Assembly (NCBI GenBank): GCA_963667175.2 | Contig: CAXXXF010000002.1 | Location: forward strand, 288,001-352,000 | Direction of reading: 5' to 3' | DNA length: 64,000 bases | Source: Candidatus Latescibacterota bacterium | GTDB lineage: Bacteria > Latescibacterota > UBA2968 > GCA-2709665 | In this document: positions 2,139-3,261 of the stretch, piece by piece | Layout: each line of letters begins with the position of its first letter | Numbering within the stretch: position 1 is the first letter of the stretch | Notes under the pieces: model-generated | Database searches by the model: none | Told to the model about the DNA's origin: nothing | What the model saw: the letters and a program-made list of their open reading frames with translations, nothing else | Made by a program: the position numbers and the translations under genes

Positions 2139-3261
2139 CCCGAATTAGTCATGAAAACCGGAGTGTTTGTTATATAATCGATTGATTTTCAACAACATCA
2201 GCGGAGAATGTAACGAATTCCATTAAGAGTCCGGAATCGGGCTGGCCGGCAAACGTTGGGGTTTCAAGGTGGACGGACTTATCGCTGTTGCTTGCCAGAG
2301 TGAGCATTTGCCCTGGCTCCTGGTTTCTAATCCTGCTTAATCCTGCAAATCCTGATCGGTTTTTCGCGTTTTTTCGTGTATTTCGTAGTTTCTGATGTTC
2401 GTTTTCTCGTGCTTTTTGGTTTTCATCCTGCCTGCCTCGCCTGCTTCAGCAGGCAGGTACATCCTGTCTATCCATGGTGCGCCGTGAAAAGGCGCGGAAC
2501 TCCAGTGGGTGAGAGTCCCACCCGACAAATGTTGCTACAGTCGGTAGCAACCGGAGCGGGGGTGAAGGTAACGACATCTCCGAAGCCTCCGGTGTAAAGG
2601 GTCGCAAGGCGACTCGGCGAGTATGCGGGCCGAAACGTGCAGTGAACGCTGAGCAGGCCTCGAAAAAGGTAATGCGGGAGCCGACCCGCCCATGGATCGG
2701 GGAAGGCCGCCGTCGTTGGAAAAAGAGAGCAACGCGTGCATCCAACGGTCCCGCCGGGGTAATGGCGAAGGCACGTATACAAGGAGATCCGACGCAACAC
2801 GGGAAGCCCCAGCGGTGGTGTATAGACACCAACCGGACGCCCGTGAGGGACAGGCCGGGCCGTATGGGGTGGCGGACAGGCTCGTAGTACCCGTGAAGCC
2901 GGGTAATGCCGGTGGAGGGAAGGGGCCTGACTTCGGATGTGCTTGTGAAGGGGACAACGGTCGGGAGAGTGGCGCAAGCCTATTACCTCCTCTAAAAGTA
3001 GATGAGGCGACTCCAGAGCAAGCTTGGGTTTCAGGTGAAGCTGTCCGGGCAGTGCGGGCAGCGTGTGCCTGAAGGCGACGTCCGTCGGAGAGCCGGATGC
3101 GGGAAATCCGCACGTCCGGTTCGACGAGCGGGATGTGGAAACGGAGCACGGAGCGGCTATTGAGGCACCGCCAGACGAAAGGGGCGGAAACAGATAGGCC
3201 ACTCCTAAACCACCGCGCCACATCCCGACTCTACTGAGTTTTGTTTTGTGAATTAATCGGG
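2139..3261. mobile_element. MITE-like element, family A, copy 2, interrupted by a group II intron
   Basis: TIRs CCCGAATTAGTCATGAAA / TTTGTGAATTAATCGGG; TGAA at 2135-2138 and 3262-3265; 365 bp after removing the intron. Confidence 0.8.
2477..3234 (+). ncRNA. ORF-less group II intron ribozyme (IIB-like), 758 nt
   Basis: 5' GTGCG at 2477. Domain V GAGCCGGATGCGGGAAATCCGCACGTCCGGTTC (3090-3122) with AGC triad and AC bulge. Domain VI stem GAGCGGGATGTGG/CCACATCCCG-A-CTC with bulged A at 3228. 3' end CTCTAC. Domain III-like GTAGTACCCGTGAAGCCGGGTAATGCCGGTGGAGGGAAGG. EBS1 CATGGAT (2691-2697) is complementary to IBS1 ATCCATG (2470-2476). No RT ORF in domain IV. Confidence 0.95.

Follow-up and report, generated by a model that had tools for sequence, protein, structure and literature searches.

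A 64,000-nucleotide stretch of the genome of a Candidatus Latescibacterota bacterium (GenBank assembly GCA_963667175.2, contig CAXXXF010000002.1, positions 288,001 to 352,000 of the forward strand; hereafter the window) carries a group II intron that lacks an open reading frame (ORF) and lies inside a miniature inverted-repeat transposable element (MITE). Judged from its sequence, the segment at 2477–3234 is a non-autonomous group II intron; it belongs to a IIB-like lineage in which the intron-encoded proteins (IEPs) have no endonuclease (En) domain. Retrohoming driven in trans by the IEPs of full-length sibling introns, through the mechanism proposed below, is in our opinion the best explanation of how this intron came to its present sites, and we regard it as probable on the basis of the sequence comparisons reported here.

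Intron copies, ribozyme anatomy, and target recognition

By BLAST against its own genome (5.52 Mb in 18 contigs; copy counts are minimum values), the window intron belongs to a family of 26 complete copies and 2 fragments. Sixteen of the complete copies are ORF-less and 10 are full-length, and the boundaries GTGCG...CTAC are common to all of them. They fall into five length classes:

ORF-less, 758 nt: 5 copies, 100% identical to one another, each on its own contig and in unrelated flanking DNA
ORF-less, 762 nt: 3 copies, sharing 97.9% identity with the window copy
ORF-less, 761 nt: 7 copies, ~92% identical
ORF-less, 1059 nt: 1 copy, of the 761-nt type with a 278-bp repeat nested in domain IV (DIV)
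Full-length, 1976–1979 nt: 10 copies, ORF intact

The five identical copies, each in different surroundings, suggest recent mobility as far as sequence can tell, and the possibility raised in the preliminary description of this DNA, that the intron is a single decayed copy, is dispelled by the census. The same applies to the possible lack of a cognate reverse transcriptase (RT). A 441-aa ORF is open in all ten full-length copies and matches RVT_1 (E 2.5e-36) and GIIM (E 2.8e-13), with no En domain in the encoded IEP. Three subfamilies are distinguished by exon-binding site 1 (EBS1) and the 5' exon that it faces:

Subfamily A: EBS1 CATGGAT, 5' exon ATCCATG, 8 ORF-less and 4 full-length copies
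Subfamily B: EBS1 TGTCAGC, 5' exon GCTGACA, 8 ORF-less copies and no full-length partner
Subfamily C: EBS1 TGAATTT, 5' exon (A/T)TATTCA, 6 full-length copies

In every one of the 16 ORF-less copies the intron-binding site of the exon (IBS1) matches the copy's own EBS1. Over the ribozyme parts (first 445 and last 150 nt), the full-length copies of subfamily A are 95.5–96% identical to the window copy and those of subfamily C 91.7%; BLAST over intron positions 1–452 gives 95% and 90.5% identity for full-length copies. Subfamily B is entirely non-autonomous, as no full-length intron with a matching EBS1 is present in the genome, and it inserts into another family of repeats, …TCGACTATTTGCTGCTCCTGAAAATAAATGGAAGCTGACA/ACTGCTCTTCCTGACCACTGG… (here and below a slash within a site marks the insertion point), of which 8 sites are occupied and 7 empty (e.g., C6:325168, C17:9278, and C18:21722). 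The best match of the IEP in a tblastn search against plasmid-borne introns is 62%, on a Planctomyces plasmid, and the plasmid-borne introns of Bacillus, Streptomyces, Escherichia coli, Klebsiella, Enterococcus, and Sinorhizobium are ~33–35% identical; assignment of an IEP class through these plasmid records was dropped, all familiar introns being only ~33% identical.

The intron begins with GTGCGCCG at 2477 and ends with GACTCTAC at 3234, in agreement with the GUGYG/AY boundary rule (GTGCG at 2477, CTAC ending at 3234). Comparison with the Rfam group II models, recommended in the preliminary description, placed both ends of the ribozyme above the gathering scores: group-II-D1D4-4 (RF02003) matches 2503–2640 on the + strand with 102.3 bits (gathering 49) over the full model, 1–138, and Intron_gpII (RF00029), which covers domains V and VI (DV and DVI), matches 3088–3234 on the + strand with 46.4 bits (gathering 40). 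The features of the intron and its flanking recognition sites are as follows:

2477–3234, + strand: ORF-less group II intron of subfamily A, 758 nt (sequence, Rfam matches, and 100% identity with four further genomic copies)
2470–2476, + strand: IBS1 (ATCCATG), last 7 nt of the 5' exon, complementary to EBS1
2503–2640, + strand: domain I core, full-model Rfam match to group-II-D1D4-4
2667–2670, + strand: candidate EBS2 (AGGT) from the covariation scan, in a loop that differs among subfamilies A, B, and C
2691–2697, + strand: EBS1 (CATGGAT) in a 9-nt hairpin loop, pairing with 2470–2476 and covarying in subfamilies A, B, and C and 65 relatives
2762, + strand: EBS3 (A), pairing with the +1 T at 3235
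2929–3083, + strand: DIV remnant in place of the RT ORF (full-length comparison and consensus fold)
3090–3122, + strand: DV with the AGC triad at 3091–3093 (Rfam and consensus fold)
3126–3231, + strand: extended DVI, with A3228 as the bulged branch site (consensus fold, 8 ORF-less sequences)

The consensus fold was built from 8 ORF-less sequences out of three genomes and keeps DV, DVI with its bulged A, and the EBS1 hairpin; compensatory double changes occur at 8 of the 224 predicted pairs. In this fold DVI has a GAG/CTC closing and a 10-bp helix, leaves A3228 unpaired 7 nt from the intron 3' end, and is unusually long in its distal part. The GTGCG start, AGC triad, branch A at −7, and AC end named in the preliminary description are thus correct to the base, its 7-bp EBS1/IBS1 pair is present at the positions listed above, and its reading of the element as a maturase-less group II intron of intact appearance is supported. 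Its short DIV devoid of an RT is likewise found. The remnant measures ~155 nt, where full-length relatives carry ~1.38 kb, and no RT ORF exists in the intron, whose longest internal ORFs (126 and 81 aa on the + strand, 251 aa on the − strand; internal ORFs and neighboring genes were assessed by Pfam matches) have no Pfam match. The same remnant is found in all 16 ORF-less copies of the genome and in the ORF-less copies of two related genomes, and it retains a hairpin homologous to the Shine–Dalgarno (SD)/start-codon hairpin of the full-length copies. In previously studied introns, the start-codon/SD hairpin is the main IEP binding site.

To follow target recognition across the lineage, domain I of 65 distinct introns (relatives and the subfamilies described here) was aligned, and each exon position was compared with the intron columns. 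Intron positions 215–219, which belong to EBS1, pair with exon positions −1 to −5 in 82–94% of these introns, far beyond chance in relatives whose exons differ. Intron position 286 (EBS3) forms a Watson–Crick pair with exon +1 in 88%, all four bases occurring in this column, and this pairing of EBS3 with the first base of the 3' exon indicates a IIB-like architecture. Intron positions 191–194 (candidate EBS2) are Watson–Crick to exon −14 to −11 in 46–66%, which makes EBS2–IBS2 the weakest of the three pairings.

The single 1059-nt copy (C13:174459–175517, locus L116) shows a further level of insertion. On both sides of its 278-bp insertion in DIV stands a duplicated 20-nt piece of intron sequence, and the inserted unit has 21 full-length occurrences in the genome (90–100% identical) and 4 partial matches; it amounts to a third nesting layer, formed by an uncharacterised small repeat.

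The host MITE

The preliminary description placed the intron within an element bounded by terminal inverted repeats (TIRs), and this was confirmed by an end-to-end alignment of 8 copies from which introns had been removed in silico. By its sequence, the repeat qualifies as a genuine MITE: it has TIRs and is flanked by target-site duplications (TSDs). The window MITE spans 2139–3261, i.e., 365 bp plus the intron, and its ends CCCGAATTAGTCATGAAAAC ... GTTTTGTGAATTAATCGGG carry TGAA on both flanks. Aligned copies, ~320–375 bp in size, begin CCTGAATTATTCATGAAAAC and finish GTTTCATGAATTAATGGGG, an imperfect inverted repeat whose two ends, in our reading of the alignment, agree at ~15 of 20 positions in the window copy, with a conserved TTCATGAAA core. 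An inverted-repeat search of 1900–3900 with a seed of 9 nt, for which such TIRs are too imperfect, gave no pairs; they emerged in the multi-copy alignment. Duplications of 4 bp flank six of the eight full copies (TGAA, TGAA, TTAG, TTAA, (A)CCAA, and ATAG), and the flanks of the other two do not match. The parts of the host element and its neighbor copy in the window are as follows:

2135–2138: TGAA, left TSD (alignment of 8 copies)
2139–2476, + strand: left MITE arm with a CC-type TIR at 2139–2158 and a promoter-like ATGAAA-16-TATAAT at 2151–2178 (multi-copy alignment, nhmmer, and consensus match)
3235–3261, + strand: right MITE arm including the right TIR (multi-copy alignment and nhmmer)
3262–3265: TGAA, right TSD (alignment of 8 copies)
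1069–1400, + strand: second MITE copy, intron-free and flanked by TGAA on either side; it has ATCCATG/T, but its IBS2 region is divergent

A profile search (nhmmer, model of 316 positions) of the intron-excised genome found 105 MITE matches, of which 20 extend over at least 80% of the model; the right-hand module of the MITE reaches ~70 copies and occurs in tandem arrays. One dense array of this module, at C17:98.8–104.5 kb, holds ten empty CCTG...ATCCATG motifs within ~6 kb, nine on the + strand and one on the − strand. The motif of the subfamily-A site, CCTGNNNATCCATG, occurs 56 times in the genome against ~2.6 expected from length alone: 9 are occupied, 43 are empty and followed by T, and 4 are followed by C. 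This site lies ~27 bp from the right end of the MITE and holds 9 of the 12 subfamily-A copies, all at ATCCATG/T. The multicopy intron and the multicopy target of the preliminary description are both supported, and 43 sites are still free. The subfamily-C site is found in the same MITE, 13 nt inside its left TIR.

CC ends and a duplication of 4–5 bp are traits of the IS1380 family, and the host repeat resembles that family in its CC start, its 4-bp duplications, and its 13-nt end. In a related Latescibacterota metagenome-assembled genome (MAG; G002, locus L008), an insertion sequence (IS) with a PF13701 (DDE_Tnp_1_4, IS1380-type) transposase has the TIR CCTGAATAATTCA, with which the left end CCTGAATTATTCA of the MITE agrees at 12 of 13 nt; that IS holds a C-type intron at the corresponding TIR position. 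Unlike members of the family, the MITE has no internal transposase and its right half has been amplified alone. No intact PF13701 transposase or IS1380-type partner with CCTGAATWATTCA ends was found in the 18-contig assembly, which contains only 25%-identity matches and a 36-residue fragment. The sole trace in the assembly of a possible autonomous partner is a truncated IS1380-type end at C15:540005–540176, with a TIR-like TGAATAATTCA and the first 37 transposase codons.

The missing partner, the excess of right-hand modules over the ~20 full-length copies together with their tandem arrays, and a promoter-like site conserved in the left end could also be taken to mean that the intron merely uses a conserved host sequence, namely a host-encoded intergenic repeat of the REP/BOX type, or a promoter or 5'-untranslated-region module, and that no transposon is involved. 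We think this improbable, since the 4-bp direct repeats lie exactly outside the inverted ends in six of eight full copies, the left end agrees with the TIR of the PF13701 IS in the related genome, and a truncated end of that IS is present in the genome itself. The ORFs that run from the motif on the reverse strand are not conserved either; we considered the motif as the start of a reverse-strand gene (MDGQDGQD...) and rejected it, the ORFs being 2–178 aa long with no conserved continuation.

The genes next to the intron are a HicA-family gene at 1789–2022 and a peptidase S51 gene at 3266–4108. The two MITEs at 1069–1400 and 2139–3261, which have the same orientation and are both flanked by TGAA, bracket a small HicA-containing module (ORFs 1611–1796 and 1789–2022), an arrangement that may be composite or coincidental. 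Three tRNA genes on the − strand of the window (34566–34636, 36186–36275, and 36439–36524), two of them with long variable arms, are unrelated to the intron.

Proposed mobility of the ORF-less intron and alternative explanations

In the mechanism that we propose, the intron would be transcribed together with its host MITE, possibly from the promoter-like site in the MITE left end, where a sigma-70-like ATGAAA-16-TATAAT (10/12) points toward the A site in both window MITEs. The RT/maturase of one of the ten full-length siblings would then bind and splice the intron, the lariat ribonucleoprotein would reverse-splice into DNA sites set by EBS1 with ATCCATG, by a weak EBS2, and by EBS3 with the +1 T, and the borrowed RT would copy the inserted intron. 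Plentiful and mostly intergenic targets would be supplied by the IS1380-type MITE, with its ~20 near-full copies and ~70 right-hand modules. Splicing, complementation in trans, and the identity of the driver IEP are what we infer here, from the anatomy, copy census, covariation, IEPs, TIRs and TSDs, and intron-free allele that we observed.

Among the observations that speak for retrohoming in trans, two concern the MITE copies. The MITEs that host identical introns are only ~75% alike, so the introns entered each MITE separately; the suggestion of the preliminary description that the intron hitch-hikes when the MITE moves finds no favor in this comparison. The second concerns the window locus itself. 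A contig of metagenome run X2 (kind given as 'DNA?', depth 4.7) joins 2476 directly to 3235, with a short side of 34 nt, and a contig of run X1 (kind uncertain) joins 2476 to 3238, with a short side of 28 nt that is below the 30-letter caution; X1 possibly comes from the same source sample as the window and would then not be independent. The downstream flanks of these two contigs are 99.6% and 100% identical to the window. Most simply, the joints represent an intron-free allele of this very MITE copy, and a presence/absence polymorphism at the window locus is likely.

Not every target is a repeat. The nine subfamily-A copies within the MITE agree with the harmless target of the preliminary description, but three of the 12 lie outside the repeat, and two of these three are antisense insertions in ORFs of 665 and 999 aa (C10:43512–42755 and C18:38034–38795; ORF lengths with the intron removed). 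Because of their antisense orientation, the introns at C10 and C18 cannot be spliced from those mRNAs and, judging from the reading frames, probably inactivate the two host ORFs. The non-MITE copies fit the occasional ectopic retrotransposition that would be expected of such an intron.

Several observations weigh against retrohoming in trans as we propose it. The EBS2 pairing of the window copy is short (AGG with CCT at 2463–2465, 3 bp) and one position off the register of most relatives. The promoter-like site was assigned by consensus match alone, and the orientation of the target motifs relative to neighboring genes is ~50/50, in a crude test with noisy longest-ORF gene calls; a promoter or untranslated-region module would be expected to keep one orientation. 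The empty-allele joints were accepted at a minimum likeness of 90, and joints below 95 often come from other organisms or repeats. No RNA contig that joins the exons at 2476 and 3235 (junction ...CATCCTGTCTATCCATG-TGAGTTTTG) was found among the metatranscriptome contigs of X5 and X16; the cover of the intron in RNA run X5 is ~500–1400 against 28 on the flank, and this high cover could come from multicopy DNA or from relatives. Finally, the DIV remnant is only ~50% identical to the DIV/ORF ends of the resident full-length introns, and its binding by the IEP is assumed in our mechanism.

The lack of an exon-joining contig, the divergence of the DIV remnant, and the weak EBS2 pairing are also what one would see in an inert relic, in which the ribozyme or its interaction with the IEP is broken and the identical copies are left over from a burst that has ended. 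We judge this unlikely: with five copies that show no single difference and a locus polymorphic for the intron, activity would seem to be very recent, DV, DVI, EBS1, and EBS3 are intact with helices kept by compensatory changes, and the DIV remnant still has its counterpart of the start-codon hairpin. Least probable, and by our estimate very much so, is a passive spread of the ORF-less copies by MITE transposition or by homologous recombination or gene conversion: the intron does sit inside a mobile-looking element with TSDs, and the conflict between ribozyme tree and shared DIV remnant described below suggests that recombination between intron copies happens, but identical introns lie in unlike MITEs, the three copies at non-MITE sites still follow (G/A)TCCATG and so match IBS1, every junction is exact (GTGCG...CTAC), EBS1 covaries with the flanks by subfamily, an intron-free allele of this MITE copy exists, and intron-bearing MITEs near-identical over the whole composite with their own TSDs were not seen. 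We therefore stay with retrohoming in trans as the preferred explanation.

Relatives, known systems, and significance

Two related genomes have the same ORF-less form with its DIV remnant, G001 in 3 complete copies and G003 in 8; the complete form was not found in G002. All eight copies of G003 are inserted at YTAA-CCTTGATTCGCAA/, 13 nt inside the end of another repeat. In a tree of the ribozyme parts the ORF-less copies are polyphyletic. The window type groups with the A-type full-length copies of its own genome (support 0.87–0.96), subfamily B with the ORF-less copies of G001 (support 0.99), and the ORF-less copies of G003 with the full-length copy of that genome (support 1.0). The DIV remnants of the ORF-less copies (G000, G001, and G003), on the other hand, are mutually alike and unlike full-length DIV. 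The conflict between the ribozyme tree and the shared remnant suggests that ORF-less and full-length introns have recombined within each genome, and the simplest reading of these sequences is that recombination or conversion with full-length introns re-aims the ORF-less form.

A second pattern concerns the exon upstream of IBS1. Among 62 distinct 5' exons of relatives, the dinucleotide TA stands at −16/−15 in 27, at −15/−14 in 14, and at −17/−16 in 6; most other offsets have 0–6, and −6/−5 also has 14, within the recurrent TATTCA of IBS1. The strong enrichment of TA at −16/−15 could reflect bases contacted by the IEP, the YTAR duplication of the transposon, or both. The dinucleotide is often within CTAG, TTAG, or CTAA followed by CC (loci L001–L080, from many phyla), and nearly the same 17-nt site, CTAGCCYGGAYTATTCA/, recurs in several unrelated phyla. 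In the genome studied here the C-site lies 13 nt inside the CC-type TIR and directly after the YTAR duplication, and another subfamily is inserted near the other end of the MITE; only 5 of 80 loci have an IS1380-type transposase adjacent to the intron. From these sites one may suspect, as a tentative proposal that is rather less likely than its opposite, that the En-less intron lineage as a whole is specialised on the termini of DNA transposons.

Palindromic targets were also considered as a general rule and rejected, since only 2 of 61 relatives score at least 12 of 18 complementary positions. At L068, L070 (a Pseudomonadales MAG), and L038 the intron is at the center of a near-perfect palindrome, e.g., CTAGCCGGACCTATTCA/TGAATAGGTCCGGCTAAG; that of L038 is a palindrome by eye, offset by 2 nt, though its score is only 4/18. 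These sites look like two abutting transposon ends.

Several known systems resemble the present one. RmInt1 of Sinorhizobium meliloti is reportedly an autonomous intron with an En-less IEP whose multicopy homing site lies inside an insertion sequence, ISRm2011-2; the IEP described here is only ~33% identical (Sinorhizobium match), and the ORF-less copy is non-autonomous. The closest parallel is that of Thermosynechococcus elongatus, in which Mohr et al. (2010; PMC2882425) described 17 ORF-less introns derived from a single deletion, six families that differ by EBS divergence, insertions in ISs, in other introns, and in intergenic DNA, and 'driver' IEPs whose action in trans was shown experimentally. 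With the TeI3/TeI4 introns of that account our introns share one common DIV deletion, an excess of ORF-less over ORF-containing copies, and families defined by EBS (PMC2882425). The differences are an IEP with no En domain and a different intron lineage (62% to the best plasmid relative and ~33% to classical introns), a non-autonomous MITE as the main target in place of an IS or a further intron, an ORF-less form common to at least three genomes, and ribozyme parts that track the resident full-length introns, which suggests recombination.

According to the review by Zimmerly and Semper (PMC4424553), bacterial ORF-less introns are rare and nearly always found with related IEP-encoding introns. 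The introns reported here are accompanied by IEP introns in the same way, and 16 ORF-less to 10 full-length copies with three retargeted subfamilies places them at the high end of the range in that review. The same review describes nested introns of Methanosarcina as 'perpetual homing sites' (PMC4424553). In Methanosarcina acetivorans, as here, a repeated and non-essential mobile sequence serves as such a site, with the difference that it is another intron there and a derivative of a DNA transposon here. By this comparison, the present case would work in the same way as that of T. elongatus and is no new kind of system or mechanism. The claim of the preliminary description that this is an undescribed system is accordingly given up, as ORF-less, trans-driven, EBS-diverged introns within ISs are known from T. 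elongatus (PMC2882425) and perpetual homing sites from Methanosarcina (PMC4424553). For group II introns that home into MITEs, no description was found in our literature search, in which MITE papers mentioned group II introns only in passing; articles that bring up such introns along with IS1380 or Latescibacter appear to deal with other subjects.

We consider the window intron and its host a clean natural example, from what is apparently an uncultured Latescibacterota-like bacterium, of nesting in which a non-autonomous retroelement occupies a DNA transposon that is itself non-autonomous. It extends the proliferation model developed for T. elongatus to a different intron lineage with an En-less IEP, to a different phylum, and to a new type of target, a MITE. 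The persistence of ORF-less introns from species to species can be studied on this material, as can the question whether new target specificity arises by point changes in the EBS or by recombination with full-length siblings. If the lineage is indeed specialised on transposon termini, with an IEP that reads the TSD and TIR of the transposon, it would be a retroelement lineage living on the ends of DNA transposons, with a long-lived ORF-less branch that gains new targets when it recombines with the full-length introns resident in the genome.

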